DNA from: a virus
Direction: 5' to 3' (one strand)
IMG/VR virus record: IMGVR_UViG_3300050343_000117
Span: 32,001 to 96,000 of that record
DNA: 64,000 bases
In this document: positions 31,001-59,011 of the stretch, in pieces
Position numbering within the stretch: the first letter of the stretch is position 1
How the letters are laid out: every line of letters starts with the position of its first letter
The notes under the pieces: model-generated
The model's input: the letters and a program-made list of their open reading frames with translations, nothing else
What the model was told of the DNA's origin: nothing
The model's database searches: none
Made by a program: the position numbers and the translations under genes

Positions 31001-32923
31001 AACTCGTTAAGAGTATCCAGTGCAGCAGGAGCGGCGTCAACAGTTGCAGCGACAACTTGATCAGCATATGCTTTAGCACTTGTTTCTGCAGCATCTGCCT
31101 TAGTAGTTGCGTCTGCTGAAGCACTTGCTTCTGCCGCATCTGCCTTAGAAGTTGCGTCTGCTGAAGCAGTTGAGATTGCTTCTGACTTAGCAGTTGCAAC
31201 ATCATTAGAAAGGTCATTAAGTACATCGACAACTGACTTTTGCGCACCTAAAATTTCTACTGATGCATCATGCATAATTTCAGAGAAATGATAAAATCCA
31301 CTGGCAGTTCCAGAAATCTGATCATCGTTGAACGAAGATACTGGCGAAGAAGGGTTCTCTGCGTCATACGCATAAACCCATGACTTACCTTCATTAGGAT
31401 TAGTATCCCAATTATTCATCCACGCATCATCTCCGCGATCGCTCACATATACCTTATCGCCGATTTTTGTCATAGACCAAGTAAATCTGTTTGATAACGC
31501 ACCATTATAGTTGCCGCCTTGTGGTGCGGTAATTTCAAGAGGTGATGATGAAAGGTTATTCTTGTCGTATACGTAAAGAGAACCTTGCTGACTATCGTAA
31601 CTGGAACTACTCGTGCCAGGTGATGCAAATCGCGCACCAACAAACAACTTAGTGTCTGTTTCTACCATAGAATGGCCAAACGCGTCATCTTGAGGAGAAC
31701 CTAATTGGGTATTATACCAAGAATTTTCTGGCGACATAACTGATTCTAGATACGCCGATGAACCAGAGTTTAACGAAGATAATGAGTATACATACAAACC
31801 GCCAGTTTCAGAAGGACTACTTCCTGTTGCAACATACAACTTAGTCCCATCTTGAGATAACATTAAGTTTTCTGCATAACTATAAAAACCATTTCCAGAA
31901 ATAAGGTTTACAGGAGTTCCGGAAAAGCGTTTGTAAATCAAACACTGCAAGAGCACCACTACCATCTGAAGTGTCATTATTTCCATATTGCAATATGGAA
32001 GCATATAAGTGTGTATTTGTAGCAACCATTCCGGTATTTTGATAAGAAGTACCGCCTAGTCTTACCCCATTACCAGTTGAGAATAAAGATGCATCTGCAG
32101 CAACATAAGTAGGTGCTGAAGTTAAGTCATTAATATCATAGACATAGAATCCACCCACGGCCGAAATAATAACAGAGTTGTCATTTTTTCTTATTTGCTC
32201 GCCGAAAAATTCATCTTCTGTAGGAGTAGGCGCTTGAAGAACTGTAGGTGCTTTGTTGTAATCAGTAGTATCATACACAAAAACGACACCAGCATTTGAT
32301 ACGGTAGTGTCACCACCGAATGCGCCTACAAGAAGTTTGCCTGGTATAGTCAGTAGACTTCCACCATAAATGCTATAACTGCCCTCTGGGCTTTGTAAAG
32401 TGATATGCCCAGATGTCGGACTTAATGGATTTATCAAAAGTAATGATTCTACGCCAGACCCTGTTCTTGGACGTACGGCCAAGTAACTTTCATATATCGA
32501 AGGGTCGCGAGGAAATTGCGATGTATCTCCAACAGCTGTTTGCAAAGTTGTTAATTCTGCTTGAACAGACGTGTCAAGTGTATCCAGATCAGCAGGAGTC
32601 GCAACACCACTTGTTAAAGTAGCATTAATTGTAGCAATGTCGGATGAGTTAGACGCAACACTTGCCACTAGGTTTGTATCTGCATCTTGGAATGCAGTTA
32701 CGATTTCTTGTAATGTATCCAGAGTTTCTGGAGACGTACCTAGAATCGCGGTAACTTGCGACTGTAGGTCTGCGATGTCAGAAGCAGTTAAATCTGCTAC
32801 CGCATCAGCAATTGCGCCTGCGACAACCTTGCCGTCTGCGCCAATAACAGTAACGTCGTTGATTGATAGTTCTCCAACTATGTCAGCTCCGTTCTGAATT
32901 CTAAACTTTTTATTAGTACTCAT
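28096..32923 (-). CDS. Large fibre protein (~1600 aa; frameshift near 31930): coiled-coil segments, FG-GAP-like propeller and CBM-like insert
   Basis: 'AAPAALDTLNELAAALGDDANF' x3; 'LLVGAFG...AGVVFVYD', 'FGHSM...LFVGA...GSLYVYD'; ORFs 31880..32923 and 28096..32025 join into one. Confidence 0.75.
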
Positions 32924-32988: not shown

Positions 32989-35900
32989 TTATGCGTCGAC
33001 GTATGTCGCAGATACAGATACTACCGCACCAGCGTCTACAGCCGTGTAAGTCAACTCAACACTTGAACCGTTAACCTGTACGTCTGTGTCGCCCAATAGT
33101 GAGGAACCAGTGTATAGGATACCATATTCAGTAATGAAGGCGTCTGTGCCATTGTGTATAACTAGACATTCGCGAGTCTCGAACTCACCGTTCAATTCTG
33201 TAGTAACTACGTACTTAGCAGAACGATAAGTTGTCTTATTGAATGCAGAAACTACTGTAGCAGAAGTTCCGGCAACAACATCATTACCCTGTTCGAATAC
33301 CTTGATGTTATCCGCAAGAGTCTCAAGACCGACAGACTTAGGATCAAGTACACCAACTGAGTTAGTAGACTGAGCGATAACAACCGCTTGTGTACCAACT
33401 GGAAGTGCAGCGTTGAACGTGATAGTCTGGTTAGCAGCATCAATCGAGTAGTGAACCGATGGATCCTGAATAACACCACCAACGAATACGATCGCGTTCT
33501 GATCTTGCGTGTAGAAGTTCAGAGCGAAAGTAGACTGCGCACCGTCACCAGACATAGTCTGACGTTGTGCGTTGTTGAATGCCAACTGAGTTGGATCTTG
33601 TAGAGACATTCCGTCTAGAGTGTTATTTACACGTAGTACATAACCGTTCTTACCGTCGTAATCAGAATCAGCAACGTCTGCAAGTTCCAGCATGGTCTTA
33701 GCAGTGTCGATTGAGAATACGCCAGTAGATTGGTCGTAAGATGCCTTACCTTCACCAGCAACATCTGTTAGAGATACTGAAGCGCGAGAAAGTGCATCGC
33801 TGAAGAACTTCTTAGTACCTTCTACTAGATCGTCTGTAGAGAACTGTGAGATGTGTTGTGCCGCAAGGCCTGCGTCCATCTGACCTTTGTTCACTGCATC
33901 AGCAGCGTCAGTACCAGTTGCAACACCGGAAACTTTGTTTCCACCCATTGCTAGGTCGCCAGTCATTGAATCGCCAGACTTCTGGACACGTCCATCAATC
34001 TGAGTTTGTAGTGCGGCATCAGCAGCAGCGAACTCACCACGGACCGCATTATCACCAGCGACTCGATCAGTAATTTCCTGAGCAAGACCTGAAGCGTTAG
34101 TTGCGATATCCGTCTGGTTCTGAGCAACTAGACCAGCAAGAGAACCGTCTGCGCTTTGGAAAGCTGCAACGATTTCTGTCAATGAATCTAGAGCGGCAGA
34201 GTCAGTGTTCGAAGTGATGAAATCGATTTGCGTCTGTAGTGAACCTTCAACACCTTGCGCACGGCTTGACTCGTCAGAGATAGCAGTTGCGTTAGTAGTG
34301 ATTAGTACACCTAGTGCAGTTTCAGCGTCTGTAGCACGAGTTACTTCAGTTGCTAGGTCAGATGTTAGTACACCTTCCGCAGCAGTAGCACGAGCAATTT
34401 CTGCGTCGATTTGTGATTGTAGGTTGTTGATACCAGAATTTCTTGTGTTATCAACGGCTTTGATTGCAGCGTCTAACTTCTTGTCTGCGTCTGCTAGAGA
34501 AGTAGATGCATCAATGTAGTTAGTAGTTGTTGGAGCGACGTAAGTACCGTCAGTTGCAAGACCTGCACCCAACTGTGTAGCAGACATCTCTGTCTCAAGT
34601 ACAGTAGTACGTGAGTCTAGAGCGTTATCAGCATTTGCACGAGCAGTTGCTTCTGTTGTGATCTTACCATCTAGAACGTCATCTGCGTTTTCACGTAGAG
34701 TTGCTTCGTTAGCAACGATTCCGTCTGCGTAAGTCTTAGCAGCAACTTCTGCGTCATCCGCTTCGTTTTCTGCGTAAGTCTGTGCAGATGCAAGAACAAC
34801 TGCGTCACGTGCGATGTAGTCTGTTTGATCAGTTACGCGATCAGCAGCTAGATCGATACGGATCTGACTATCAGCAGCGATGCGGTCAGCAATTTCAGAA
34901 ACAAGTGCGTCTGAATCTGCATCTGCACGAGCAACAGCAGCCGCAAGACCAGATGTATTAGTATCTGTCTCACCGTGTACTTCGTTGATTGCACCAACTA
35001 GAGTCTGTGAAACAGTATCTAGAGTTTCAGTTGAAGAACCAACCTTAGCTTCTAGTGCGTCAATGTCTGCTTCGTTAACTGTTAGACGACCACCTTGTAG
35101 AGTCTGTTCAGTCTCTAGTGCAGAAGCACGAGTTTCTAGAGAAGTTGCACGACCTTCGACAGCGTCCATTTCAACTTCTAGAGTACCAACACGACCTGTG
35201 TTAGAATCTGCTTGACCGTGTAATTCGTTTACGGCTGCAGTTACGTCTGTAGCAACTGTTAGAAGAGTTGAAGTACCCATCTGAGTCTGTAGTGTATCTA
35301 CGTGACCTTCTTCTGTAGTCATTCGTGACTCTAGGGAAGTTGCACGTCCTTCTACTGCGTCCATTTCAGACTGTAGAGTATCGACATTAGCTTCTTCTGT
35401 AGTAACACGAGCCTCTAGAGAAGTCAGATCAGCAGCTTCACCATCGATCTCTGCGTGTAATTCGTTAATCGCAGCAGATAGATCGGTTGCAACAGTTTGT
35501 AGTGCCGCAGAACCTTGCTTAGTTTCTAGTGCAGTTGCACGTCCTTCTAGAGTAGTTGCGCGACCTTCTAGTGAAGTTGCACGACCTTGGATTGCAGTGA
35601 AGTCTGAATCATGTCCGTCTAAACGACCTTCAGCGACATCCATTTCTGATTGTAATAGATCAACATTTCCTGCTTCGACATCCAACTCACCGTGGATTTC
35701 GTTAACAGCACCAACGACAGTTTGAGCAGTAGTATGGAAACCGCCTGTACCCTGCTTCGCTTGTAGTGAATCAATGTCTGCTTCGTTGACTGATAGTCGA
35801 CCGTTCTGAACAACCTGTCCTGCTTCTAGTGACGTTGCACGTCCTTCAACAGCAGTTGCACGTGCTTCTAGATCAGTTGCACGAACTTCTACAGCATCAA

Positions 35901-38900
35901 TATCATTTTCAGCAGTAGTTAGTCGACCAGAGTTAGCAGAGATAAGACCGTCTAGGTCTGAATCTGCACCTTGGAATGCACTAACGATTTCTGTCAATGA
36001 GTCTAGAGCAGCACCGTCTTCGTTAGATACGATGAAGTCAACACGAGTTTCTAGAGTTGTTAGGTCAGTAGTCAGTACGCCTTCAGCAGCTGTTGCACGT
36101 ACTACTTCCGCATCCAACTGTGATTGTAGATCAGCAACATCTGTTCCTTGTAGATTTTGCAGTGCAAGGATATCAGAATCGTTTGCAGTAACCTGTACCT
36201 GAACACTATCTACGTCTGTACGTAGACCTGCTTCAATACCTTCCGCACGGTTCTTTTCAGTAACAACAGCAGCGGCATTAACACCTTCTGCGGCAGTTGC
36301 ACGGTTGACTTCAGCAGTGATTTGTGCTTGGTTGTCTGAGTGATCAGCAGCTTGCAATACTTGTAAAGCAAGAATGTCTGAATCATTTGCAGTGATTTGT
36401 GATTGGTTAGAGTCGACATCTGTACGTAGACCAGCTTCGATACCAGTTGCACGTGTAGTCTCTGCAACAACAGCATTTGCGTTTACTACTTCAGCAGCAG
36501 AGGCGCGAACAACTTCTGCGTCCAACTGAGTTTGTAGGTCAGCAACATCTGTACCTTGCAAGTTCTGTAGAGCAAGAATGTCTGAGTCGTTACCAGTTAC
36601 TTGAGTTTGTAGAGAATCCACAGAAGTCTGTAGACCTGCTTCAACACCACCGGCTCTTGCAGTTTCAGCAAGAATCTGTGCTTGTAGGTCTGAGTCTACT
36701 GCGTTGAAGTCATCTTCAACAAGATCTAAACGAGTACTTAGAGCGCCTTCTGCAGCTAGTGCACGAGTACGTTCTACGTTGATATCACCTAGGTTAGAAG
36801 AGATGTTAGCGATGTTAGTGTTTACGTCTGCACGTAGACCCTGTTCTACCGCTTCTGCACGTTGCTTTTCAGTAACGACTGCGGCCGCGTTAACGACTTC
36901 TGCAGCTGATGCACGAGTAACTTCTGCCGTGATTTGATCCTGTAGATCATCAACGTCGATTGTAGTGTTTGCATTCAATGCATCGATCTGACCTTGTAGG
37001 TTAGTATCGCCTGATGCACGAGCAACTTCTTCTGCACGTAGGTCGGTTTCATTCTGTGAAGAAAGAACCTGAACTGCGTCCATCTCGCCTTCTAGTACAG
37101 TAGTACGTAGAGCGACTGCTTCTTCAGCTGCTTCAGCACGTGCTTTTTCAGTTGCAACTTCTGCATCTGTGTAAGCATATGATTGCGACTTAGCAGTTGC
37201 AATTCGAGAAGTAACGGTGTTTCCAGCAGTACCATCTACAGATGCGTCACCGATAAGTGCGGCGTCTTGTGCATCAGCGTGTGCAATTGCAACAGCCTGG
37301 TGCGAGTCAGCTTCTGAGTCAGTGTATGCTTTTGCTTCAGCAAGAACGTCGTCTTTTTCAACTTGAATGTCAACGTTGATTTGATCAATCTGAGACTGTA
37401 GACCAGTGTCAGCAGTTGAACGAGTTGATGCTTCAGTATTGATGTTAGTTTGTAGAACACCTTCCGCTGTTTCTGCACGTAACTTCTCAGTTGCGATTGC
37501 AGTAGTGTTAGACGAAATAAGTGCAGACATGTCTGAATCAGATGACTGGAATGCGCTAACGATTTCTGTTAGTGAGTCTAGAGCAGCTGGATCAGTGTTG
37601 TTTGTAATGAAGTCAACTTGTGATTGTAGGTTTGCGTCACCAGCAATACGAGCAGCTTCTTCTGTATCGATGTTACCCTGTAGAGTAGTATCACCCGCAG
37701 CACGGTCAATAAGTTCTTGATCGATACGTGCGTTGATGTCTGAGTCTTCATCTTTACGTTCTTGGTTTTCGATTGCTACAGAATTGCTTGCTTCAATGAT
37801 TGCTTCTGCTTTTGCAGTTGCGATGCGGTCAGTAACAGTATTAGATACAGTACCGTCAACACTTGCATCACCAATCATTAGTGCGTCTTGTGCTTCAGCG
37901 TGTGCCTTAGCAGCTGCTTCAGCAGTAACAATGTCAGCACCTAGATCAGCGCGAACCTGTGTATCTGCAACAGCACGTGCAAGAATTTCATCTGTGATGT
38001 TCTGCGCGTTTGCAGCTTCTGCACCAGTAGCACGAGTAACTTCAGAAGAAATTGCAGCTGTGTTAGCATTTTCTGCGTTAGTTGCGCGAGTGACTTCAGC
38101 AGTAATCTGTGACTGTAGAGAAGTCGATAGACCTTCTTCAGTAGAGATACGTGCAGAAAGTGCAGCCTCAGCACCAGTAGCGCGAGTTGTCTCTTGACCA
38201 ATCTGAACAGCAAGTGCTGATTCAGCAGATTGTGCACGAGTGATCTCGACACTAACACGGTCATTGATTTCTGTTTCTTTATTAGTTGCACGAGTAACTT
38301 CAGCAGTAATTGCGGAAGAGTTTGCAATAATTGAAGCAGATAATGCGTCATCTGCATCTTCAAACGCTGCGATGATTTCTGCAAATGAATCTATCGCGTC
38401 TGAGTCAGTATTGTTTAGTAGTAGATCAATACGACCAGACAATGCAGTATCAGCTGACTGATATGCAATTTCAATTGCGTTTTCACGAGCAGTTGCACGT
38501 GTTACTTCTGCGTCAATGTTAGATTGTAGTACAACATCCGCTGACGAACGAGTAGATGCTTCAGCGTCAATGTTAGTCTGTAGTAGTGTTTCTGCGACTG
38601 TTGCTCGATTAGTCTCTACTGCTACCGCACTTGCGATATCAGATGCAACAGCAGTCTTTGCTCTTTCAGGTGTGAAATATTGGTTAGCCCCTTCTTGCAA
38701 GTCGTCCGTAGTGAACGATGCGAAGAATGCGTCTGCACCAATCTTCTTTAATGAGTCTGAATTGACATCATAGAGAAGGGTGAAACAATCCGCTGGATTG
38801 ACCATACCTGTAAGGGTTGATTGTCCCTGTACTGCACTTTCATCTAGCTTGGTATTAAGTACCGCTTTATCAGCTAGTGCAGGGGATTTAATCTGCCTAA

Positions 38901-38907
38901 ATGCCAT
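32989..38907 (-). CDS. 1972-aa alpha-helical coiled-coil fibre (fibritin/whisker position)
   Basis: Many 'AEVTRATAAE', 'LQSQID' and 'LEGRATTLE' repeats, 'ALDSLTEIVSAF' nodes; globular C-terminus 'YRSAKYVV...ITEYGIL'. Confidence 0.8.
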   Translation of the reverse strand: MAFRQIKSPALADKAVLNTKLDESAVQGQSTLTGMVNPADCFTLLYDVNSDSLKKIGADAFFASFTTDDLQEGANQYFTPERAKTAVASDIASAVAVETNRATVAETLLQTNIDAEASTRSSADVVLQSNIDAEVTRATARENAIEIAYQSADTALSGRIDLLLNNTDSDAIDSFAEIIAAFEDADDALSASIIANSSAITAEVTRATNKETEINDRVSVEITRAQSAESALAVQIGQETTRATGAEAALSARISTEEGLSTSLQSQITAEVTRATNAENANTAAISSEVTRATGAEAANAQNITDEILARAVADTQVRADLGADIVTAEAAAKAHAEAQDALMIGDASVDGTVSNTVTDRIATAKAEAIIEASNSVAIENQERKDEDSDINARIDQELIDRAAGDTTLQGNIDTEEAARIAGDANLQSQVDFITNNTDPAALDSLTEIVSAFQSSDSDMSALISSNTTAIATEKLRAETAEGVLQTNINTEASTRSTADTGLQSQIDQINVDIQVEKDDVLAEAKAYTDSEADSHQAVAIAHADAQDAALIGDASVDGTAGNTVTSRIATAKSQSYAYTDAEVATEKARAEAAEEAVALRTTVLEGEMDAVQVLSSQNETDLRAEEVARASGDTNLQGQIDALNANTTIDVDDLQDQITAEVTRASAAEVVNAAAVVTEKQRAEAVEQGLRADVNTNIANISSNLGDINVERTRALAAEGALSTRLDLVEDDFNAVDSDLQAQILAETARAGGVEAGLQTSVDSLQTQVTGNDSDILALQNLQGTDVADLQTQLDAEVVRASAAEVVNANAVVAETTRATGIEAGLRTDVDSNQSQITANDSDILALQVLQAADHSDNQAQITAEVNRATAAEGVNAAAVVTEKNRAEGIEAGLRTDVDSVQVQVTANDSDILALQNLQGTDVADLQSQLDAEVVRATAAEGVLTTDLTTLETRVDFIVSNEDGAALDSLTEIVSAFQGADSDLDGLISANSGRLTTAENDIDAVEVRATDLEARATAVEGRATSLEAGQVVQNGRLSVNEADIDSLQAKQGTGGFHTTAQTVVGAVNEIHGELDVEAGNVDLLQSEMDVAEGRLDGHDSDFTAIQGRATSLEGRATTLEGRATALETKQGSAALQTVATDLSAAINELHAEIDGEAADLTSLEARVTTEEANVDTLQSEMDAVEGRATSLESRMTTEEGHVDTLQTQMGTSTLLTVATDVTAAVNELHGQADSNTGRVGTLEVEMDAVEGRATSLETRASALETEQTLQGGRLTVNEADIDALEAKVGSSTETLDTVSQTLVGAINEVHGETDTNTSGLAAAVARADADSDALVSEIADRIAADSQIRIDLAADRVTDQTDYIARDAVVLASAQTYAENEADDAEVAAKTYADGIVANEATLRENADDVLDGKITTEATARANADNALDSRTTVLETEMSATQLGAGLATDGTYVAPTTTNYIDASTSLADADKKLDAAIKAVDNTRNSGINNLQSQIDAEIARATAAEGVLTSDLATEVTRATDAETALGVLITTNATAISDESSRAQGVEGSLQTQIDFITSNTDSAALDSLTEIVAAFQSADGSLAGLVAQNQTDIATNASGLAQEITDRVAGDNAVRGEFAAADAALQTQIDGRVQKSGDSMTGDLAMGGNKVSGVATGTDAADAVNKGQMDAGLAAQHISQFSTDDLVEGTKKFFSDALSRASVSLTDVAGEGKASYDQSTGVFSIDTAKTMLELADVADSDYDGKNGYVLRVNNTLDGMSLQDPTQLAFNNAQRQTMSGDGAQSTFALNFYTQDQNAIVFVGGVIQDPSVHYSIDAANQTITFNAALPVGTQAVVIAQSTNSVGVLDPKSVGLETLADNIKVFEQGNDVVAGTSATVVSAFNKTTYRSAKYVVTTELNGEFETRECLVIHNGTDAFITEYGILYTGSSLLGDTDVQVNGSSVELTYTAVDAGAVVSVSATYVDA

Positions 38908-42691: not shown

Positions 42692-42720
42692 ATTATACCA
42701 TACTTAGGTTGATTATGCAA
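42692..42720 (-). promoter_or_regulatory. Sigma70-like promoter for the hypothetical-GT-oxygenase cassette
   Basis: TTGCAT-N17-TATAAT. Confidence 0.6.
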
Positions 42721-45700
42721 CCCTACAGTATAGAGTATAAGTTTCTGGTGTATGTACTAGAGTGTCGCTAATCGTTGCACCAACATAGTTACCTAGGAAG
42801 GAACGTGAGTAGTTGCCACCGAAGTTACGTGAGTAATCACCTGTAAACGTACGTGAGTAGTTACCAGTGAAGTCACCTACGTATGTAGATACACGATCAC
42901 GTGAGTAAGTACCTGAGTATGCAGAACTACGGATTCTTGCGTAAGCAGAAACCCTTACACGTGAGTAGTTACCTACGAAGTCGCGTGAGTAGTTACCTAC
43001 GAAGTCACCAACAAAATCACGGGCATATGTACCAGTGTATTCACCAGCATATGCTCTTGAGTAGTTACCAGTGAAGTCACCAGCAAAGTCACGAGTGTAC
43101 TGACCGGAGAAATCACGTGAGTAGTTACCTGTGAATGTGTTAGAGTAAGTACCAGTGTACTCACCAACGAATCCACGAGCGTAGTTTCCTACGTAGTTTC
43201 CACCGAAGTTACGTGAGTAAGTTCCGGAGTAAGCGCCAGTGTACTCACCAACGAATCCACGTGAGTAAGTTCCAGCATATTCACCAGTGAAAGTACGTGC
43301 ATAGTTTCCTACGTAGTTTCCACCAAACTGTCGAGTGTAATTACCAACATAGTTACCAGTAAAGTCACCAACATAATCCCCAACAAAGTTACCCGCATAG
43401 TTACGAGAGTATTGTCCGGAGAATGTGCGTGAGTAGTTACCTGTAAAGTCACCAGCAAAGTTAGTTACACGATCACGAGTGTATGCAGATGAACGGTTAC
43501 GTGTGTAAACCGAAACACGAGTCCTTACATATGCAGAGTAACGAGTACGCGTTGAAGTACGAGTGTACTCACCAGTATAGTTACCAGCGTAATCGCCAGC
43601 GTATCCACGAGCGTAGTTGCCTACGAAGTCACCAGCATACCCACGTGCGTAGTTACCCACGAAGTTACCAGCGAAGTTAGTTACGCGATCTCTTGTGAAG
43701 TCACCAATATAGTTAGTCACACGTGTACGAGCGTAAGCAGAACCACGGTTACGAGTCGAAGTACGTGTTGAAGTACGAGTAAAGTCGCCAACATAGTTAG
43801 TGATACGAGTACGAGCATATGCAGAGTAACGAACGCGAGTAGAAGTTCGAGTTGAAGTTCTTGCGTAGTTACCTACGAAGTTACCAGCAAAGTTAGTTAC
43901 ACGGTTACGAGTAAAGTCGCCAACATAGTTAGTGATACGAGTACGAGCGTAAGCAGAGTAACGAGTACGTGTTGAAGTACGAGTACTAGTTCTTGCGTAG
44001 TTACCAACATAATCACCGGCATAACCTAGAGTACGTGTGTAGTCACCTACGTAATCACCAGCATAGTAACCAGTACGAGTGTAGTAACCAGTCTCAGTAC
44101 GAGTACGAGTACTAGTTCTTGCGTAGTTACCAGTATAGTGACCAGTGCGTGTACGACCATAGTTACCAGTGTAAGCACCAGTACGTGTACGAGAGTAATC
44201 TCCGGCATATGAGAACGCACGGTTACGTGAGTAATCTCCAGCAAAGTTACCTGTAAAGTTAGTTACACGATCACGTGAGTAGTTACCCGCATAAGATGCG
44301 TTACGTGTACGAGAGTAGTTTCCTACGAAATCACCGGCATAAGATGCAGCACGGTTACGTGAGTAATCTCCAGCATAAGATGCATTACGTGTACGTCCGT
44401 AGTTACCTACAAAGTTTCCGGTATAGTTAGTAGCACGAGTACGACCATAGTTACCAGTATATGTTACGCCACGAGTGTAGTTACCAGTATAGTAGAATGT
44501 TGAATTACGAGTACGTGTGTAGTTACCCGCGAAACTGGTTGTTCTGGAATATGTCAAGTTACCTACGAAGTTACCAGCGAAGTTACCAGCATAAGATGAA
44601 CCACCCGATTGGTAAGTAACACCATAATGTGATACGAATCCATTCGTGTTTCTCCAAACAGCACGATAATATGTTACACCGCCAGCAGTCAGAGATGTTC
44701 CGTTTCCTGTCATGCTTCCAACTATAGATCCATTAACATAAACGGTAACAAAATTGATTCCACCTTCATTATCCGAACGCCAACCTGTAGTTAACGACCA
44801 GTTATTTCCGGAATATGCGTTGGTTACGGTACCACCAGCACCAGTAGAAGTACGTGTGGAAGTACGCGTTGATGTTACTGTACGAGTATAGTTTGAAGTT
44901 GCTACACTGTTACGAGTATAGTTACCAACATATCCCGTTCCGTTAACAGAGGTTCTAGTATAGTCAAGTGTTGCAGCACGTCCTCTAGAGTAATCACCAA
45001 CAAAGTTACCTGTGAAGTTGGTTGCACGAGTACGTGAGTAGTTACCCGCATAAGATGCGGCACGAGTACGTCCATAGTTACCAGTATATGTTGCATTACG
45101 TGTACGTGTTGATGTACGAGCATAGTTACCGACATAAGATGCGGCACGAGTACGTCCATAGTTACCTACGAAGTTGCCTGCGTAGTTAGTAGCACGAGTA
45201 CGACCATAGTTACCAGTATAGTGACCAGTACGTGTACGTCCGTAGTTACCGACATATGAGAATGCACGGTTACGAGAGTAATCACCAGCGTATGAGAACG
45301 CACGGTTACGAGAGTAGTCACCTACGTAGTTTCCAGCATAGTACAATGTACGAGTATATGCTAGTGTACGTGTTGATGTACGTGTTGAAGTACGTGTATA
45401 GTTGTATGTTTGGTAGCGAGTACGTGTTGAAGTTCTTGCGTAATTTCCCACATAATCGCCAGCATAGTTACCAGCATATCCACGAGCATAGTTACCAACA
45501 AAATCACCTGTGAACGTTGTTGCATAGTTACCAACAAAATCACCAGCAAAGTTAGTTACACGATCACGTGAATAGTTACCTACGTAATCACCAGCATAGT
45601 TACCAGCGTATCCACGTGCGTAGTTACCAACAAAGTCGCCAGTAAATGTGGTTGCATAGTTACCTACGTAATCACCGGCATAGTTACCAGCAAAGTTACG

Positions 45701-47455
45701 TGCATAGTTTCCTACGAAGTTACCAACGAAGTCACGAGCATAGTTTCCTACGAAGTTACCGGCAAAGTTAGTGACACGGTCACGTGTATATGCAGAGTAG
45801 CGAGTACGAGTTGACGTACGAGCATATGCTGAATAACGTGTACGAGTAGATGTACGAGTAGAAACGCGAGCGTAGTTACCAACATAATCACCTGCATAAC
45901 CACGGGAATAGTTACCTACGAATCCACGTGAGTAGTTACCCACGAATCCACGAGCATAGTTTCCTACGAAGTTACCGGCAAAGTTAGTGACTCGATTGCG
46001 TGTGTAAGTAGAAACACGTGCACGAGAGTAAACGCCTGCAAAGTTAGTTACACGGTCACGTGTATAATTGGTAATACGAGTACGGGTGTAATCAGCAGAG
46101 TATGCTGAAGTACGAGTACGAGTATAAGTCCCTGCGTAAGCAGATACACGGTTGCGTGAATAGGTACCGGCATATGCAGATACACGGTTACGAGAATAAG
46201 TTCCAGCGTAAGTTCCAGTGTATGTTGATACGCGTGTACGAGTGTAGTCTGCTGAGTAAGAAGAACTACGTGTACGTGAGTAAGTACCTGAGTAAGTTGA
46301 AACACGACCACGAGTATATGCAGATGTGCGAGTACGTGAGAATGTTCCGGTAAATGGTGTGACGCGGTTTCGAACATATGTAGAAACACGTGAACGGTTG
46401 TAAGTACCGGCAAAGTATCCAGTAAATGCAGTTAGTCTATTACGTGTATATGAAGATACGCGTGTTCTTGCATAATTACCTACGTAATCACGTGAATAAT
46501 TACCTACGAAGTCACGGGAATATGCACCAGTGTAGTTACCAACAAACGTACGTGCAAATGTGTCCACACTGTTACGTGTGTAAGTAGAAACACGGTCACG
46601 TGAGTATGCAGAAACCCTAGTACGAGTGTAAGCTGAGTTACGTGTACGAGAGTATGCAACGTCGACAATAGTACGACGGGTGTTAGAGGCAGAACCTCGT
46701 GGTACCCATGTACCTGCCAAAGATGGTGCGCCTTGTGCAGATGAACGCAACTGGTATGAACCAATCGCACCTGCTGTAGATCGAAGTGATTTAGCACGTT
46801 GACCAAGTGTGTACTTGATTTCCGCGTCGGTCATAGACTTCAGACCATTGAATGATGTACCATCATAATCTGTTGCGACTGGACGTGTAGTAACTACACC
46901 AGCTGGTGGAGTTGCAAGTGCAGTTCGTTTCCAGATATGATATTGAGTTGTTGTACCATCACCATGTGTATCGGCAAACACATTCTCGATGTGCTTAGTC
47001 CAATCACTACCTGGCGAGGTAGTTGAAAGTTCGAATGCACCTTGAAGACCTAGAGTCTCCATGTTTTTTAGTGCACGGTTTGTCAGATTATCCAAATCCC
47101 CATCTACCATTTCGTAGAAGCCAGGATTTGCGTTATCTGCGTAATAACCGACAGGACGGGCAAAATCAGAACCAGATTCACTCGCGGAACCAGCAACCTG
47201 TTTCAAGGTTGTAGTTACACTTGTGCCAGTGATAGCAGACATTGGGTGTGTACCCGCTGGTTCATTGTAGTACGTATCTACAAAAGAACCGATGTTTGTA
47301 CCATTGGTTAGACTGATGTCACCGACATCACCAGCGGAGGCCTCCGCTAATGCTTCACCCACTTTTACAGCAAGATACATCTCTTCTGCTGGAGTGAATT
47401 CCTGTAGGTCACCATCGGTATTTTTAATTTTTAGTGGTATACTAGATGCTGACAC
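42713..47455 (-). CDS. 1580-aa Tyr/Arg/Gly/Thr tetrad-repeat protein with mirror-complementary arms (putative giant beta-hairpin fibre)
   Basis: Globular N-domain (aa 1-~267), ~600-aa repeat arm, ~85-aa non-repetitive centre, ~600-aa complementary arm, short C-tail; late promoter at 47508-47515. Confidence 0.85.
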   Translation of the reverse strand: MSASSIPLKIKNTDGDLQEFTPAEEMYLAVKVGEALAEASAGDVGDISLTNGTNIGSFVDTYYNEPAGTHPMSAITGTSVTTTLKQVAGSASESGSDFARPVGYYADNANPGFYEMVDGDLDNLTNRALKNMETLGLQGAFELSTTSPGSDWTKHIENVFADTHGDGTTTQYHIWKRTALATPPAGVVTTRPVATDYDGTSFNGLKSMTDAEIKYTLGQRAKSLRSTAGAIGSYQLRSSAQGAPSLAGTWVPRGSASNTRRTIVDVAYSRTRNSAYTRTRVSAYSRDRVSTYTRNSVDTFARTFVGNYTGAYSRDFVGNYSRDYVGNYARTRVSSYTRNRLTAFTGYFAGTYNRSRVSTYVRNRVTPFTGTFSRTRTSAYTRGRVSTYSGTYSRTRSSSYSADYTRTRVSTYTGTYAGTYSRNRVSAYAGTYSRNRVSAYAGTYTRTRTSAYSADYTRTRITNYTRDRVTNFAGVYSRARVSTYTRNRVTNFAGNFVGNYARGFVGNYSRGFVGNYSRGYAGDYVGNYARVSTRTSTRTRYSAYARTSTRTRYSAYTRDRVTNFAGNFVGNYARDFVGNFVGNYARNFAGNYAGDYVGNYATTFTGDFVGNYARGYAGNYAGDYVGNYSRDRVTNFAGDFVGNYATTFTGDFVGNYARGYAGNYAGDYVGNYARTSTRTRYQTYNYTRTSTRTSTRTLAYTRTLYYAGNYVGDYSRNRAFSYAGDYSRNRAFSYVGNYGRTRTGHYTGNYGRTRATNYAGNFVGNYGRTRAASYVGNYARTSTRTRNATYTGNYGRTRAASYAGNYSRTRATNFTGNFVGDYSRGRAATLDYTRTSVNGTGYVGNYTRNSVATSNYTRTVTSTRTSTRTSTGAGGTVTNAYSGNNWSLTTGWRSDNEGGINFVTVYVNGSIVGSMTGNGTSLTAGGVTYYRAVWRNTNGFVSHYGVTYQSGGSSYAGNFAGNFVGNLTYSRTTSFAGNYTRTRNSTFYYTGNYTRGVTYTGNYGRTRATNYTGNFVGNYGRTRNASYAGDYSRNRAASYAGDFVGNYSRTRNASYAGNYSRDRVTNFTGNFAGDYSRNRAFSYAGDYSRTRTGAYTGNYGRTRTGHYTGNYARTSTRTRTETGYYTRTGYYAGDYVGDYTRTLGYAGDYVGNYARTSTRTSTRTRYSAYARTRITNYVGDFTRNRVTNFAGNFVGNYARTSTRTSTRVRYSAYARTRITNYVGDFTRTSTRTSTRNRGSAYARTRVTNYIGDFTRDRVTNFAGNFVGNYARGYAGDFVGNYARGYAGDYAGNYTGEYTRTSTRTRYSAYVRTRVSVYTRNRSSAYTRDRVTNFAGDFTGNYSRTFSGQYSRNYAGNFVGDYVGDFTGNYVGNYTRQFGGNYVGNYARTFTGEYAGTYSRGFVGEYTGAYSGTYSRNFGGNYVGNYARGFVGEYTGTYSNTFTGNYSRDFSGQYTRDFAGDFTGNYSRAYAGEYTGTYARDFVGDFVGNYSRDFVGNYSRVRVSAYARIRSSAYSGTYSRDRVSTYVGDFTGNYSRTFTGDYSRNFGGNYSRSFLGNYVGATISDTLVHTPETYTLYCRVA
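42785..46654 (-). repeat. 12-nt / 4-aa period repeat array (xGNY, xRxR, xSxY, xRxF tetrads) interrupted by the central domain at ~44590-44845
   Basis: Dozens of GGTAACTA(C/T) and ACTCGTAC units. Confidence 0.95.
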
Positions 47456-47621: not shown

Positions 47622-48062
47622 TTATTGTGGAGTTTCTGGCCAGTTGACCTGATCAATATTTGACATATTCGGATCAATAAAGTCTAAGTCCCTTAATTCC
47701 TGACGATACCCCGCCCACGCATTCTTCATATCAGTAGATAGTGGAGAGTCTGAGAGCTGAGTCCAGTCAGTGCTCGCTATCATGCGATTTCTCATAAATC
47801 TGACTTCATTCATTAGATCTTCTTGATCCCAGACCCATTCTCCATCTACCCAAGAAGAATGTCTATTTGGAGAAGATTCTCTTTCTTTCCAGTTACCATC
47901 CCAGTAATGGGTCTGTATAAACTCAGCTTTATCTGAGATTACAAAATCAATATGGACAATTGTTGTTCCATCTTCTCTTAAACCTTCAGGTTCATTAGAA
48001 CCAGATGCTAACTTTAATGTTTGTATTTCATTATTTCTAATGTATGCGATATAATAAATCAT
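47622..48062 (-). CDS. Tail fibre assembly chaperone-like protein
   Basis: 'VRFMRNRMIASTDWTQLSDSPL...WAGYRQELRDL...WPETP'. Confidence 0.8.
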   Translation of the reverse strand: MIYYIAYIRNNEIQTLKLASGSNEPEGLREDGTTIVHIDFVISDKAEFIQTHYWDGNWKERESSPNRHSSWVDGEWVWDQEDLMNEVRFMRNRMIASTDWTQLSDSPLSTDMKNAWAGYRQELRDLDFIDPNMSNIDQVNWPETPQ

Positions 48063-52632: not shown

Positions 52633-55600
52633 TTAGTAATGAAAGACTAGAGCATTATCTTCTGATTGCCAAGAAGGGGTTACTGATCCACCCGCATCTC
52701 TATATTCATCTGTGTATCGAATACCGATCGGTATATCCAACCAATCAAAAGTCTCACCACTGTGAGTAGTGGATAGGTTGACACTATAGTTACCTGAAGC
52801 TTCAGAAGTAATCGTGTTCACAAACTCTGTACCATAGTTCATAGTAACAGTACCCGTAGTAGACCATTCCGGACCAAATGTGTATGTTATTGGATAGTAG
52901 TGTGTGTTATGACCTTCTGGTCTTTCGATCCCGTAAGTTATGAATCTAACATCATGTTGAGTACCATTTACAGATGAATCCGTTTCAATATATATTGGTT
53001 GAACTGTTGCTTGACCTTCTGCTTCTGAGGTCATTTCTGGACTATATGGATAAATTGCGTGGAAGTCTCGACCACTTTCCCAATATACGCCATCATGAGC
53101 GACAGCTACAACGATGCCTTCGTCTGTATCGACCGTCATACGGTCTCCAACAGGCAAGTCATAATTGAACGTGAGTGTTTGGATGATATCGCCAGCTGGT
53201 TCATACAAATCACCACCAAATGCCTCACTAGTAGGTGGAGACAATCTAATGTCCATCTCTACAGTACCAGTATATGGTGTGGATTCACTAACACCCGACA
53301 TATCGGATTCAACTAGAATGAACCCTGTGCTACCCATTTCGCCCCTTTCAGAGACCGATAAATTAGTTGCAAAACTGTCACCGACATGATCGTAGGTTGT
53401 TTTGTTTCGAAGTACCGACACACCGTCACTTGTGTGAGACATGAGCGGATCATTCGGATCATTATCATTAGGTATTTCATAATCGTTGATTTTTTTCAGG
53501 GTGCTTGTAATTCCAAATCTTTCTAGATAGTCAAAGAAGTTATTATCTGGACCGTCAGTAAATTGTTGAATAGGTCTATCCAACCACTGACTAGTATGCA
53601 CTAGAGTTCGTGTTCCAACATCCGTAGCGTTTACTTGACTATAGACTTTCAACGATCCATCAAGGTGGAACTCAAGATTGAATCTGACTCCTCTAGGCTC
53701 CCAACCAGATGTACCTGACCACTCTCTACCCACATCGCGGCTACTTGCTGATATTGTTGGAACGGTCTCAGCGAAAAGCGAACTTATGTCTCTGACCTCA
53801 TTGGTCTCGCTTCCGGTGTCGGTATTAGTTTCGCCACCTGTATTAGTTTCGCCGCCGGTGTCTGTATTAGTTTCTCCGCCGGTGTCTGTGCTACTAGTAG
53901 TGTCTGTACTACCACTATTGTTACTTGAACTTGATGTGGTAGTAGTACCTGTGGAACCCGAACCTCCTGTTATCAGAGCGATTGCACGTAAGTCTTTAAT
54001 TAAAGGAGACTTAGAAGAGTTCTCTGAATGCATTACAATCTTAATCTGGAATGCGGTAAACTGTTCTGACTCATGAGTATACTCATACTCTGGGAAATTA
54101 GATGGGTTGTCGCTTGTAGGAATTGCTCTGTCTATATCAACCTTTACCCATTCGTGTATGGATTCTCCTTCTACAGCAGTAGATGCTACCAAGGTGTCTT
54201 CGTCTGGTGCTGTCTTAACATAGACTTCAAAGTCAGAACCAGATGGTCGGTTACCTGAAAATATTACCTTCAGACCAAGTGAGGACTCATCAACAACAAC
54301 TGGTGTTGTGATGTGTTGCGCAGCATATGCAAACGTGGTATAATCCGGTGTATCTGTATTAGGATCATATACATCGTGATCAATTACGTTTTCTAGTGTC
54401 ATAACCGCAACACGTTGAAGGTCAATTACAGGAGAAACTTTTGGATCTGCTGTGACCAATGATAGGTTCAATTTTAACGTTTCAGTAGATACGTTTTCAG
54501 AAGAAGCAACAATCTTTGGTAGAGAGTTCAAATTATATTCATTTACAAAGACCGGAACTTCGTCCTGTAACGTGTATACAAACTGATCTGTTGTACGACT
54601 GTCTGAAGAAGAACCATAGGATTTTGCGACAGGCGCAATCAACCCTGCATTTATTTTAGTAGTGTTAGGTACTACTGCTTGGATCTGTGGCACGAACGTA
54701 TCATAGTAGACTTGCTGTGAAGCGATAACCGCATTACCACCACCAGATGAACTAGCGCTTGCTACAGTAGGAACCTTAACATAATAACCGTCCCATGTTG
54801 GTTCATATACTTCAAGTAGACCGTTCATTTCTGAAGCGGGAACTCCACCAATATCATTGACAACGCCTGAGATAGAAACTATATCTTCGTCACTGAATCC
54901 GTGACCTTGATGATAAATCTTTACTATTCCGTTGTTAGCAATATCATCTGTATGAGTCAGACCGGCAACAGTTTCAATAGGATTAAATTCTAATGTGACT
55001 TTAGGTAAAGGTGCATTATCTAATACTAAATTACCTGATGTTTCAAAATTAGCTCGATGTAACTTGAACATCAAGTCTTTACTTTGATCTGGTGTCCATG
55101 TGCTAGAGTTTTGAGATAAGAATAATGAACCTAGAGTAGAAATTCTTGGAGCCTTATCTTGATTACTACCTATGACAAACTCTTCTGATTCCGAAATATA
55201 TACGTTATACTCTACGGATTCACTGAATAATATTATCGCATATTCTTTACCACCTGTCAAGTAAATCGGTTCGTCAAACTCAACAGCAGTTGCGCCAGTA
55301 GTCACTAGTGTATTCATTCCTTCGTTTTCACCTGAAATAGAATCATATGAAGTGACAGTAACATCATCGGAATTGACAAACACAACTGAGCCTGGAACGA
55401 CCTGATTGGTAGGAACTCCATTCTCTACCGTACGAATCTCAACCTGTAGTGGAGCAGTACTATCCTTAGACTCCATGAATACGTCTAGCTGAGTTAGGAA
55501 TATACCGTTAGGGTTTTCAATCTGGTCAACGAAGAATGTCTGCGCTAAAGGATCATTACGTCCTTCACTTCTGTAGATTCTTCTAGTAGTATCGATATTA

Positions 55601-58600
55601 CCCTGAGCGGTATCTAAAGCACCTTGTGATGAATAGAACGCAGATGTAGATATAGTAGACTCAGCGTCATACAGACTTACGTCTAACAACTCAAACTTTT
55701 GAGTTCCTGTTCTAAACTTCAAAGATTCTGTATTAGGTAAGAAGAATGATCCGATTAGCTCACCCTTATTATCTGTCTGCAAGAGAGTTGGTCCACCTAA
55801 GTCTGCTGGATATCCTGATTCGTTTGCATACTCACTACCAAATTCTTGTGGATTATCCGCAAATCTTTGTGTGGTTGATTCCTGTCGAACCCAATCACTT
55901 ACGTCTACACCGTCAAAGTATGCAAACATCTTAGTGTTAGGACGAAGTCCTTTGGCGACGAAGTTGATTCTACGAGAACGCATATACGGAATGATTTGCT
56001 GTCCACCAATAGTTTCACCAAGCAAGTCTTGTGCGTGAACCATATTTTCATATTTGTATTGATATTCAGCCAAAGGCATATGTAAGTTACTATTGAATGA
56101 CGTTACACTACCGTCGATCCAATTATAACTACCGCCGTACCACAAATCTTCTTGAGTGTGATAAATGCTTTGTATTACCGGAGGCAAATCTCTAGATTCT
56201 CTCCACTCATCCGATGATGGAGACAATTCTAAATTACCGATATACGATACTACAGTATGAGGATTAACATTAATAAAACTAGTAGCAAGTTCCTGTTCGG
56301 TGAATTCGACTTCAACATATGGTAGGGTAACCAAATCACCCTTCTTGCTTATTACGGTATCAACGTTATCTGCGCTATATGATAGTCGTACTGAATTTTC
56401 ACGAAAAGATGCCTGTAACAATCCACTTCTATCAACGGACGCTCTATAGTTCTCGTTATTAATGTCAGAGTAGTCGAATGTGCTAAAATTATCAGCGAAG
56501 AATCCTGACTTAACTCTTGACTGCCCTTGGTTATCAGTAATGACTAGGGACTGAGTATTAGTTTCCAAGAAACTCAATGCAGTCCTTTCATACAACTCAT
56601 CCAAACGTCGTTCTAATTTTGCGATATCTTTCATAGTATATCGCTTGTTTGGAATATAAGCTGTCGAAACGTCAGATGCACTGAATGTGTAAGGGCTCAA
56701 AGTAAACGTATATAGCGACAGTGAACCTACTGGAATCTCTGGTTCCTTTGGAGTTATACTAGGAACCCCCTGTATAACCTGTAGTTCACCAAACCCAATG
56801 CTGCTGTTTACTGCGTTCGCAACTAGAACGTCAATACGAGGTAAGTAGTATTCTATATCATTGATAGTGATGGCAGATGCATTCTGAGGTAACTCTGCGA
56901 CTACGTTGAATTCTCCGGTGTAACCAAATGTTCGGGAAGGTCGGAAGTCTAATACATCTCTTAAAGAGATGGACTGACCTGTCGCACTGGTATGGTTAGG
57001 GATATTTTCATAACTATCGTCTGCATAAGATGAAGCAGAGAAGAACGTGCTTCCGCTTGGTCCAGTATGTGTATAATGTGTGTATGTAACCTTTATCTCA
57101 GATTGGCCACCTGTAGGTAAAAGATATCCTGGCTTCAAGTACACGACAGCTTCGTCATAGAAGTTATCACGTTGACCGCCATCTAGATAAAACTGGTGAG
57201 TGATGTCTTCAGCAGCAGACCAATCTGTACCAGAACTATCTCTGAATAAAACCGATTGAAGAGAGATACCATCTACGGTATCTGTGAATACAGGACGTTT
57301 CTCCCAGTCTATCGATGGAAGAGTCTGTGTTTTTTCTGCAACCGTTATTGTTTTTGTGCGAGGTGTTGCGTTAGAGACCTCAACGTAATATGCAATATCA
57401 TGATTTTTGTTTGGCCTCAGACCCGAATATACACCCGCCATACTTGGTACTGATTCTGGACCAGTTAGAATAGAGGTTTCGGACTCTGCGATTATCCAAC
57501 GATTAGTTTCAACGCCAGACAAACTAATAACACCTTGACTATCAGACTGTATTCTAGTATATCTCTGTACAGTATAGTTTGCAGTAATCGAATCATCTTT
57601 TGGACTGGTTCTAGGTAGCGGGAACAGCAGACTATTGTTAGATGACTCATGTATTGTGCTATCTACTAATTGAATTCTTGGGGCTACCAGCGCCTGGAAT
57701 ATTATCCTGTAATGATACTGCATCAGCAAAACTATGATATCCTGTACCACCTTGTATTGAAGACATACGAATGTCAAAAATGTATAGTCGGTAACCAAAT
57801 GAGTCGGATTGTATACCACGGACGTTACAGAAACCTATTACAGATCCGCCTGATGCTGCGTTGTAGATAGCCAAATATCCAAATACATCTAATCTACCGA
57901 AACCTTCAGATGAGGTTGGGTCGATATAAACATAGTTACCATATGCAACTGGTACTGGTTCGTTAAATGTCTGAAGAGTTTGTCTTGCTTTTGGTACGGT
58001 AATATCCGTTTGACCAAATTCTAATCGATAACCATCTACATATGCTATACCTTCAGAAACATCTAGATTTAAATTAGTGTTATCCAGAGGTTCGAATATC
58101 GCAGTAAACTTATCTACAACATAGTCACCAGACTCTTCTTTTGTTCTTCGTGCAAGCAGATCATTAACTCGACTGTATGCATCGAATGTACTTACCTCGC
58201 GTGTGATAACACCGTTAACAACACGTGCGACAAATATAAAGTTTTGACTTATATCTACTTGATCACGAGTAGTAGGTGTTAGTTTGATCTGATATCGATG
58301 AGCGCCTGGCGCAGTGATATCTGGAACTTCGCCTTGGTTATCATATAGATTAGTATCTTCGCTCTCATCTACGATTGATTCTTCAATCACAAAACCGATA
58401 TCTGCCGTTGGTTCTGTGCTATACTTTGATAGGAAAGATTCTCCACCTTCCATGTAAACAAAGTGTCCCTGTACAAAGAACTCGCCTGGCGCAAAGTACG
58501 CTTTAGTGCCACGACCTGCTGCCGGAATTTCATCTTCACTGTCGTCGATTACAGTAAGAGTAGAATTATCTGGGCGAGTTAAAATGTCTCCTGATTCAAC

Positions 58601-59011
58601 ACGAGGTGCTTTCTCCGTGTCGGTTACATTTGAAGTATCTGTATATCTAACATAAAGAGTTGCTGGATCTTGATCTGGTACTGCACTATACACCTCAAGA
58701 ACAATAAACTGTATAGTGCCGTTAGTTAGAGTCTCACCAACTAAACTAGGATCTATAACACTATTAGCATCAAGACGAATATATTCTATCCTATTATCAA
58801 CTGTCGAACCACCTGGGCTGACTAGTGCACCTTCTGTAAATATGTTACGACCGAAACGTGCAATCTCTTCGTGTATTATTGTTTGTGATTCATTTAACTC
58901 ACGTGCTTGAAGAGCCCTACCTGAATTATAGAGTACACGATAATAACCATCTTTCGGATCGTAAAAATCGCGGTAAGTTTCTCTGAACGTCTTATCTGTA
59001 AAATCTGCCAT
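52633..59011 (-). CDS. VrlC-like / DUF4815 large baseplate structural protein (frameshift near 57675) with an extra C-terminal domain
   Basis: 'YRDFYD...YYRVLYNSGRALQARELNESQT', 'APGAHRY', 'NKRYTMKDIAKLERR', 'KSGFFADNF', 'DPLAQTFFV', 'PLIKDLRAIAL'. Confidence 0.85.

Follow-up and report, generated by a model that had tools for sequence, protein, structure and literature searches.

A long tetrad-repeat gene in a phage structural module

The stretch of DNA analysed here, which we call the window, spans 64,000 nucleotides (positions 32,001 to 96,000 of the IMG/VR virus record IMGVR_UViG_3300050343_000117) and represents the structural module of a marine T4-like myovirus, with genes for the gp23 major capsid protein, the scaffold, the large terminase, the tail sheath, gp15 and a gp8-like wedge protein. 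One of its genes, P0001, encodes a protein with two long repeat arms that are complementary to each other in antiparallel order, suggesting a fibre made of one chain that folds back on itself. Several other very large fibre-like genes adjoin it.

P0001 has a start codon site that, like the C-terminal motif, is shared by the 49 complete IMG/VR relatives, where the codon is either GTG or ATG. The protein is composed of an N-domain, an arm of four-residue repeats (tetrads), a knob, a second arm and a short C-tail (Table 1). An invariant G-T-W motif ends the N-domain, 21 residues ahead of the N-arm. The arms are of very low complexity, with ten residue types making up 97-99% of them, and the distance from one Tyr or Phe to the next in the repeat region is four residues in 151 of 241 cases and eight in another 45. 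Other frames and the opposite strand of the repeat region contain ORFs of 83-121 codons (Table 1), which are by-products of the monotonous codon pattern and not genes. The whole protein matches no Pfam-A family at E<=0.01 and no PHROGs family at E<=0.001, and the sequence search against PDB chains gave no match at E<=1.

Table 1. Coordinates of the repeat gene, its parts and the neighbouring genes discussed in the text (ORF, open reading frame; aa, amino acids)
Feature	Position in window	Strand	Remarks
Whole gene P0001	42713..47455	minus	1580 aa + stop; GTG start; single ORF
N-domain, residues 1-268	46652..47455	minus	conserved base domain; invariant W and nearby G/P/T in alignment
N-arm, residues 269-870	44846..46651	minus	602 aa; tetrad repeats
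Central knob, residues 871-955	44591..44845	minus	85 aa with 3 Trp; non-repeat; exactly between the equal arms; proposed distal tip
C-arm, residues 956-1557	42785..44590	minus	602 aa; complementary to the N-arm, order reversed
C-tail, residues 1558-1580 + stop codon	42713..42784	minus	conserved T-Y-T-L-Y motif
Shadow ORFs	44902-45159, 45232-45513, 46048-46413, 46102-46353, 46504-46806		by-products of the codon pattern
gp15-like protein with DUF285 repeats	24300-26336	minus	678 aa
Very large protein	28096-32025	minus	1309 aa
Very large protein	32989-38907	minus	1972 aa
Phage_tail_APC gene	47622-48062	minus	tail-fibre assembly chaperone
DUF4815 ORF, second part	52633-57819	minus	1728 aa
DUF4815 ORF, first part	57659-59011	minus	450 aa
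Collagen-like protein	61937-64000	minus	runs past window end

Complementarity between the two arms

The initial annotation of this gene, made from the sequence alone, had read the N-arm forward against the C-arm backward and claimed a gap-free antiparallel register of more than 100 tetrads. We cut the arms into tetrads in frame (104 from residues 269-684 of the N-arm and 103 from residues 1146-1557 of the C-arm), sorted these into four classes and calculated the mutual information between opposed classes, which is 0.88 bits at the claimed register. The controls, 161 other antiparallel and parallel registers and 20,000 shuffles, lie far below this value. The other registers have a mean of 0.13 bits (standard deviation 0.09), the best being the adjacent shift with 0.59 bits, and the shuffles have a mean of 0.07 and a maximum of 0.26 bits (z=25), so that the comparison with shuffled controls, which the annotation had proposed, clearly favours its register. 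A pairing of the arms in parallel, as in a direct repeat, was rejected, the best parallel register reaching only 0.44 bits.

The pairing follows a simple rule. Tetrads of the type xRx[R/S], which lack a terminal aromatic residue (open tetrads), are opposite xGx[Y/F] in all 28 cases in the N-arm and all 22 in the C-arm, in agreement with the proposed pairing of xRxR/xRxS with xG(N/D/E/Q)Y. The second proposed rule, which paired xSxY with xRx(F/Y), is looser, holding for 14 of 27 such tetrads while 12 of 27 oppose xGxY instead. The dependence is carried by tetrad positions 2 and 4, with 0.72 bits for N2-C2, 0.66 for N2-C4 and 0.55 for N4-C2 (z 17-21), and positions 1 and 3 contribute little information. 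The strongest dependence lies on one antidiagonal and joins residues up to 1288 positions apart, so the covariation is not confined to neighbouring repeats.

The irregularities of the repeat are mirrored as well. Where the tetrads are interrupted by six-residue words, those of the N-arm oppose those of the C-arm, start and end adding up to 1826 in seven of seven cases. Because all seven hexads are mirrored, both arms are exactly 602 residues long and the register i+j=1826 is gap-free throughout. The annotation had let the register resume beyond a short irregular stretch; the resumption is confirmed, but the stretch is no break, as hexads face hexads across it and i+j=1826 is continuous. Its estimate of two nearly equal arms of about 1.8 kb each was accurate, with the DNA coordinates correct within 3 nucleotides. 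The frame of the aromatic residues also changes at matching distances from the two ends, at about 417-437 and then 563, 573 and 587 residues from the N anchor, and at 418 and then 564, 570 and 588 residues from the C anchor.

The arginines are distributed accordingly. Over the full length of the arms, Arg-Arg oppositions are absent from the two same-face antidiagonals, 1825 and 1827, and number 15-37 on the ten other odd antidiagonals tested. All 168 arginines of the arms are opposite G, F, S, Y or L on antidiagonal 1825 and opposite Y, G or F on 1827. Summed over both arms, each block of 60 rungs (opposed residue positions) contains 14-19 arginines, whereas single-arm counts range from 3 to 14, which reflects the exchange of roles between the arms, block by block, that had been noticed at the outset.

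A palindrome at the DNA or RNA level was considered as the cause of the mirror pattern and rejected. The inverted-repeat search of the DNA found none, and the arm DNAs show 31% reverse-complement identity at the register, compared with a mean of 25% and a best value of 35% elsewhere.

The mirror pattern might also arise without any physical pairing, from low-complexity repeats or from the way in which the gene has grown, in a protein that folds as an ordinary beta-helix or solenoid with local contacts. The repeat periods of 4 and 8 give this explanation some room, as any two period-8 patterns yield some apparent pairing, and the adjacent shift retains considerable information. It leaves unexplained why one register stands far above the 161 others and the 20,000 shuffles and why irregularities and frame changes are mirrored; furthermore, a duplication would yield identity rather than complementarity, the DNA has no inverted repeat, and the register is kept in the family through length changes of more than 1400 residues, as described in the next section. 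The explanation is already disfavoured, and we regard it as extremely improbable.

Conservation of the register in relatives

The family is large. With the N-domain as query, 360 representatives at 50% identity were retrieved (E<=1e-3), and IMG/VR provides 73 loci with 49 complete genes, encoding 453-2282 residues. The members are unnamed or annotated only as "hypothetical protein". Among 50,697 deposited phage genomes, a single one matched, that of Phage C48C1, which is filed under Kyanoviridae. Its homolog (L001, positions 141011-151054 of the record) is a "hypothetical protein" of 3347 residues, about twice the length of the window protein, and is found at the equivalent place in the genome.

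The G-T-W motif and the T-Y-T-L-Y tail are present in most full-length family members and serve as anchors that set the register without using the repeats. Of 888 48-residue segments taken from relatives of more than 800 residues, 593 fit this end-anchored register best among 121 offsets, and this extends up to the turn. Thirty-two of 38 complete relatives, with repeat spans of 560-1996 residues, show only 0-3 Arg-Arg oppositions at the end-anchored register, the mean at other offsets being 6-38. In most of the IMG/VR relatives, the midpoint between the anchors lies in a tight turn or in a knob without repeats.

Insertions are matched between the arms. In alignments of the outer 160 residues of each arm, 14 of 23 sequences have an N-arm insertion of 12 residues, located about 66 residues from the arm start, and exactly these 14 also have a 12-residue insertion about 68 residues from the end of the C-arm. 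One member, L047, has 32 extra residues in each arm.

The pairing rule is also found in distant members, with N-domains only about 42-44% identical. In one of them, P0005, the polarity is swapped: the N-arm is of the glycine type and the C-arm of the arginine type. Of its 20 open tetrads, 18 oppose xGxY; in another, P0009, this is the case for 10 of 10 open tetrads at the anchored register. Among 105 representatives at <=50% identity, from which this protein and its close relatives were left out, 202 of 421 open tetrads are opposite xGx[YFW] at the register, compared with 116-141 of 421 at shifts of 1-3 and a background of 23%. In 15 of 101 proteins, the highest Arg-Gly count among 163 offsets coincides exactly with the predicted one. 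These results support the antiparallel pairing of two arms, as first proposed for this one protein, over a wide range of repeat spans, with mirrored insertions and with swapped polarity.

The two predicted antidiagonals contain 4% of all column pairs in 145 proteins and 8 of the 40 pairs with the strongest covariation. Calculated across all antidiagonals, residue-level mutual information mainly reflects the four-residue period and does not discriminate in homologs.

Structure prediction and the base domain

In the shortest members of the family (362-404 residues), a short turn connects arms of about 9-12 tetrads, and one of these proteins was used as a model of the base. The AlphaFold2 prediction for this homolog (P0023, 404 residues, alignment of 70 rows) reaches a pLDDT of 80 and a pTM of 0.71, with residues 1-270 and 380-404 mostly above pLDDT 90. 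The model consists of three strand-strand-helix-hairpin units, and the hairpin of the third unit is formed by strands 242-273 and 369-402, the end sums of which (644 and 642) bracket the register of 643 that is predicted from the anchors. The C-tail strand adjoins the last strand of the N-domain in the same chain with high confidence. As the model pairs these two strands, it appears that the C-tail completes the base and that the fibre is an outgrowth of one hairpin of the base. This agrees with the earlier suggestion that the hairpin is held by the N-domain and the C-tail together.

The best fold matches to the P0023 base are beta-prisms of the MABP type, namely, Mp2Ba1 (PDB ID 8b6v, Z 7.2), Plu-MACPF (PDB ID 2qp2, Z 6.9) and MVB12B (PDB ID 3tow, Z 5.8), with 114-121 residues aligned over model range 40-404, including the C-tail; Z values below 8 are in the range of chance common arrangements. 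Any likeness would lie in three repeats around a pseudo-threefold axis, to which the three strand-strand-helix-hairpin units of the model may correspond; BLASTP for internal repeats in the N-domain of the window protein was not significant (E 18 and 0.5). To our knowledge, no MABP-type domain carries a 1300-residue hairpin. The only T4 baseplate protein among the fold matches is gp11 (PDB ID 1el6), with Z 2.8 over 49 residues. A Foldseek search of the P0023 model against PDB returned nothing at E<=0.001, and ESM Atlas searches with the knob and with P0023 gave unnamed viral clusters only, or no usable match.

The base also bears on the question of which arms pair with each other. Covariation cannot separate contacts within a chain from those between chains, and the N-arm of one subunit could in principle lie on the C-arm of another, in a head-to-tail or domain-swapped dimer or polymer without any fold-back. 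In the P0023 model, the C-tail strand lies beside the last N-domain strand of its own chain at pLDDT >90, the arms of the shortest members are joined by a short turn, another relative (L066) has a turn of about 9 residues at its midpoint, and in most relatives the variable knob is located exactly at the midpoint. These observations argue for pairing within the chain, and we consider an interchain arrangement improbable.

Proposed architecture of the fibre

The equal, complementary arms, the register kept through changes in length and the conserved ends make it quite probable, in our view, that the protein is a single-chain fibre whose arms fold back and pair antiparallel within the chain. The N-domain and the C-tail would jointly form one compact base; the chain would exit the base as the N-arm, turn at the 85-residue knob and come back as the C-arm, lying antiparallel on the N-arm residue for residue according to i+j=1826. 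The contact would be made by tetrad positions 2 and 4 of both arms, presumably one face of a beta strand. An Arg in one arm would always meet Gly, Ser or an aromatic ring across from it and never another Arg. This face might act as a zipper in which Arg lies over Gly or Ser and beside the aromatic ring of the other strand. Aromatic rings may stabilise cross-strand glycine in sheets. Because Arg is opposed by Gly, Ser or an aromatic residue, bulk and positive charge would be even along the ribbon, whereas either arm alone is very uneven. Such a ribbon would lengthen or shorten only via matched changes at mirror positions, and with 602 rungs fully extended it could measure up to about 200 nm.

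In its most specific form, the proposal is that of a protein "stem-loop", in which one chain makes a two-stranded beta-ribbon of ~600 rungs and roughly 0.2 micrometre, with a pairing rule on one strand face, grown from a single hairpin loop of a small base and evolving in length by matched insertions and deletions in the arms. We put this forward tentatively, as a real possibility that falls somewhat short of being probable. If true, this would amount to a new way of constructing long thin fibres. The known long protein fibres are made of parallel trimers, coiled coils or polymerised subunits. Here, sequence evidence points to one chain pairing with itself over 602 residue pairs by a rule that can be read by eye. 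A single-chain fold-back fibre would be a new architecture for host recognition by marine phages, with the receptor-binding tip encoded in the middle of the gene rather than at its C-terminal end, and this would alter the annotation of such genes and the reading of tip exchange. It would furthermore be a rare natural case of a protein-protein register that is predictable from sequence, akin to RNA helices, and could provide a natural pairing code, or template, for designing beta-ribbons of set length.

Several results weigh against this architecture. The AlphaFold2 prediction for residues 739-1087, run with no alignment, has a mean pLDDT of 40, too low for a usable model, and contains no long hairpin; the one part that approaches pLDDT 70 is a local meander with strands of 10 residues. 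In the P0023 model, the hairpin falls below pLDDT 50 beyond about two tetrads. A complex prediction of N-arm residues 269-428 with C-arm residues 1398-1557, using rows of 22 relatives for each, scored 0.00 against a mark of 0.32 in a run without control runs, which counts neither for nor against the pairing.

Some relatives depart from the register. One of them, L049, has an uncompensated register shift of 24 residues and, at the anchored register, 18 and 16 Arg-Arg oppositions. The L049 protein comprises 1651 residues, compared with 1675 for the related protein (comparison with L047, L048 and L052), and the shift begins about one third along; the explanation is either a looped-out segment that is tolerated or an error of the assembly. 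In L060 and L061 (2101 residues), the register is lost part-way and there are about 110 extra non-repeat residues within the C-arm, and it is only partly kept in L066, L069 and L074. Another relative, L041 (1800 residues), seemingly has two knob-like segments near its centre. The extra segments of L060/L061 and L041 may be side domains on the hairpin. In a subfamily of the Lys/Gln/Glu type (P0003 and P0004), the frame shifts are not simply mirrored. Where the knob was located by composition, the resulting arm lengths are only rough, with L060/L061 and L041 as outliers, and their correlation over 13 proteins is meaningless.

Recognition of cognate arms was likewise weak. Each N-arm was compared with each reversed C-arm by Smith-Waterman alignment, with a matrix learnt on this protein. 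Of 101 proteins, 30 had their cognate arm among the ten best scores and 5, this one included, had it in first place; long Arg/Gly-rich arms score well against any partner in this test.

The protein is known here from its gene alone, and its presence in the virion is presumed. Finally, the arms contain 168 Arg against 54 Asp+Glu, so the fibre would be strongly cationic, and a free two-stranded ribbon with such a net charge may require partners or counter-ions. Speculatively, a cationic fibre might aid the first contact with anionic cell surfaces.

Comparison with known fibres

The nearest precedent, as a likeness of topology and not of homology, is the tip of the T4 long tail fibre protein gp37. 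In gp37, the collar domain D10 is built from residues 811-881 and 1010-1026 with the needle domain D11 between them (PMC6957217), which makes the needle a small-scale fold-back with its receptor-binding tip in mid-sequence. The window protein resembles gp37 in belonging to a fibre gene of a T4-like phage, in its putative mid-sequence tip and in a base that would be formed by the segments flanking the hairpin, as suggested by the equal complementary arms and by the C-tail strand of the P0023 model. It differs in the length of its arms, 602 residues, and in its residue pairing rule, and the sequence and fold searches detected no similarity to the gp37 tip. The gp37 needle comprises about 130 residues and is a trimer that holds seven iron ions bound to His (same source); in contrast, the window protein has no HxH motif in its whole length and one His per arm.

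The trimeric needle raises the possibility that the arms pair as found and that the working unit is an oligomer of hairpins, for example, three forming a six-stranded needle, or a hairpin wound into a thicker solenoid, either of which would shorten or stiffen the fibre relative to a free ribbon. As a rule, phage fibres are trimeric, and the gp37 needle has the topology of this first example. A second, weakly covarying face that could pack on other ribbons is available at tetrad positions 1 and 3 (Val/Ala/Thr/Ser and Asn/Asp/Thr). The high net charge speaks against a naked ribbon. On the other side, the P0023 base looks like a single-chain structure with three internal repeats, so that trimerisation would not be needed, and the metal-binding motif of the needle is missing from a protein so poor in His. 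We consider an oligomer or solenoid of hairpins rather unlikely, less so than pairing between chains.

Two further systems invite comparison. In SMC and Rad50 proteins, the N- and C-terminal halves of the chain fold back and pair antiparallel over hundreds of residues, the termini form the head, a small domain sits at the turn and the arm lengths are matched. This is an analogy only, as those arms are alpha-helical coiled coils in ATPases, whereas the window protein has a beta-type period of four residues, no ATPase and no homology to them. The triple beta-helix and beta-spiral fibres (T4 gp5 and gp12, adenovirus shaft) share short periodic repeats containing Gly, with alternating side chains. 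Those fibres consist of identical chains that are parallel, in register and all of one direction, and they show no mirror complementarity between the halves of one chain, unlike the protein described here.

The initial annotation knew of no phage fibre built in this way. A full-text literature search found no description of the family or of the fibre design, as judged from listings, abstracts and passages, and the searched text of a tail-fibre fold atlas (PMC12143355) lists the T4-like needle tip and no hairpin or antiparallel fibre class. This agrees with the statement; the small fold-back of gp37 qualifies it.

The central knob as a putative tip

The knob is poorly conserved. Relatives with N-domains that are 93-96% identical share only 38-40% identity over 58-80 aligned knob residues, and the best knob match (56%) comes from a relative with an N-domain only 64% identical. 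The divergence of the knob therefore exceeds that of the base, and knob similarity does not track base similarity. Because the knob is not conserved, aligning relatives to the knob of this protein failed for most of them. Its position and variability suggest that the knob is probably the distal tip and binds the host, and the pattern is consistent with cassette exchange of a host-binding tip. As the gene encodes the distal hairpin as one uninterrupted segment, a single exchange with a crossover in each arm would leave the arms matched.

Genomic neighbourhood

The gene directly upstream of the fibre gene encodes a tail-fibre assembly chaperone (Phage_tail_APC). Among the 73 loci, 57 have a Phage_tail_APC gene, which is located directly upstream in 51. 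The possibility that it is the dedicated chaperone of this fibre is not supported, as its identity to the window copy (31-92%) tracks neither the N-domain nor the knob; it probably serves the fibre gene upstream of itself.

Two very large proteins are encoded on the other side of the fibre gene (Table 1), and the first of them matches many tail-fibre PHROGs in three stretches. This phage has several distinct fibre systems side by side.

In the protein of the gp15-like gene, residues 5-243 are a T4 gp15-like tail sheath stabiliser, to which five DUF285 repeat stretches are fused; this is an unusual addition to a tail-completion protein.

A DUF4815 profile is spread over two ORFs that overlap by 161 nucleotides, with profile positions 70-246 in the 450-residue ORF and 372-567 in the 1728-residue ORF. 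The latter also matches a PHROG of 2056 positions from position 577 on. The split could be a frameshift, either programmed or an error, or a true split.

The last gene of the window encodes a collagen-like protein in which G-x-x triplets extend over hundreds of residues and precede a C-terminal domain of ~120 residues without repeats. This gene accounts for the jump in GC content to 0.52 and for the strong GC skew over the final 2 kb of the window.

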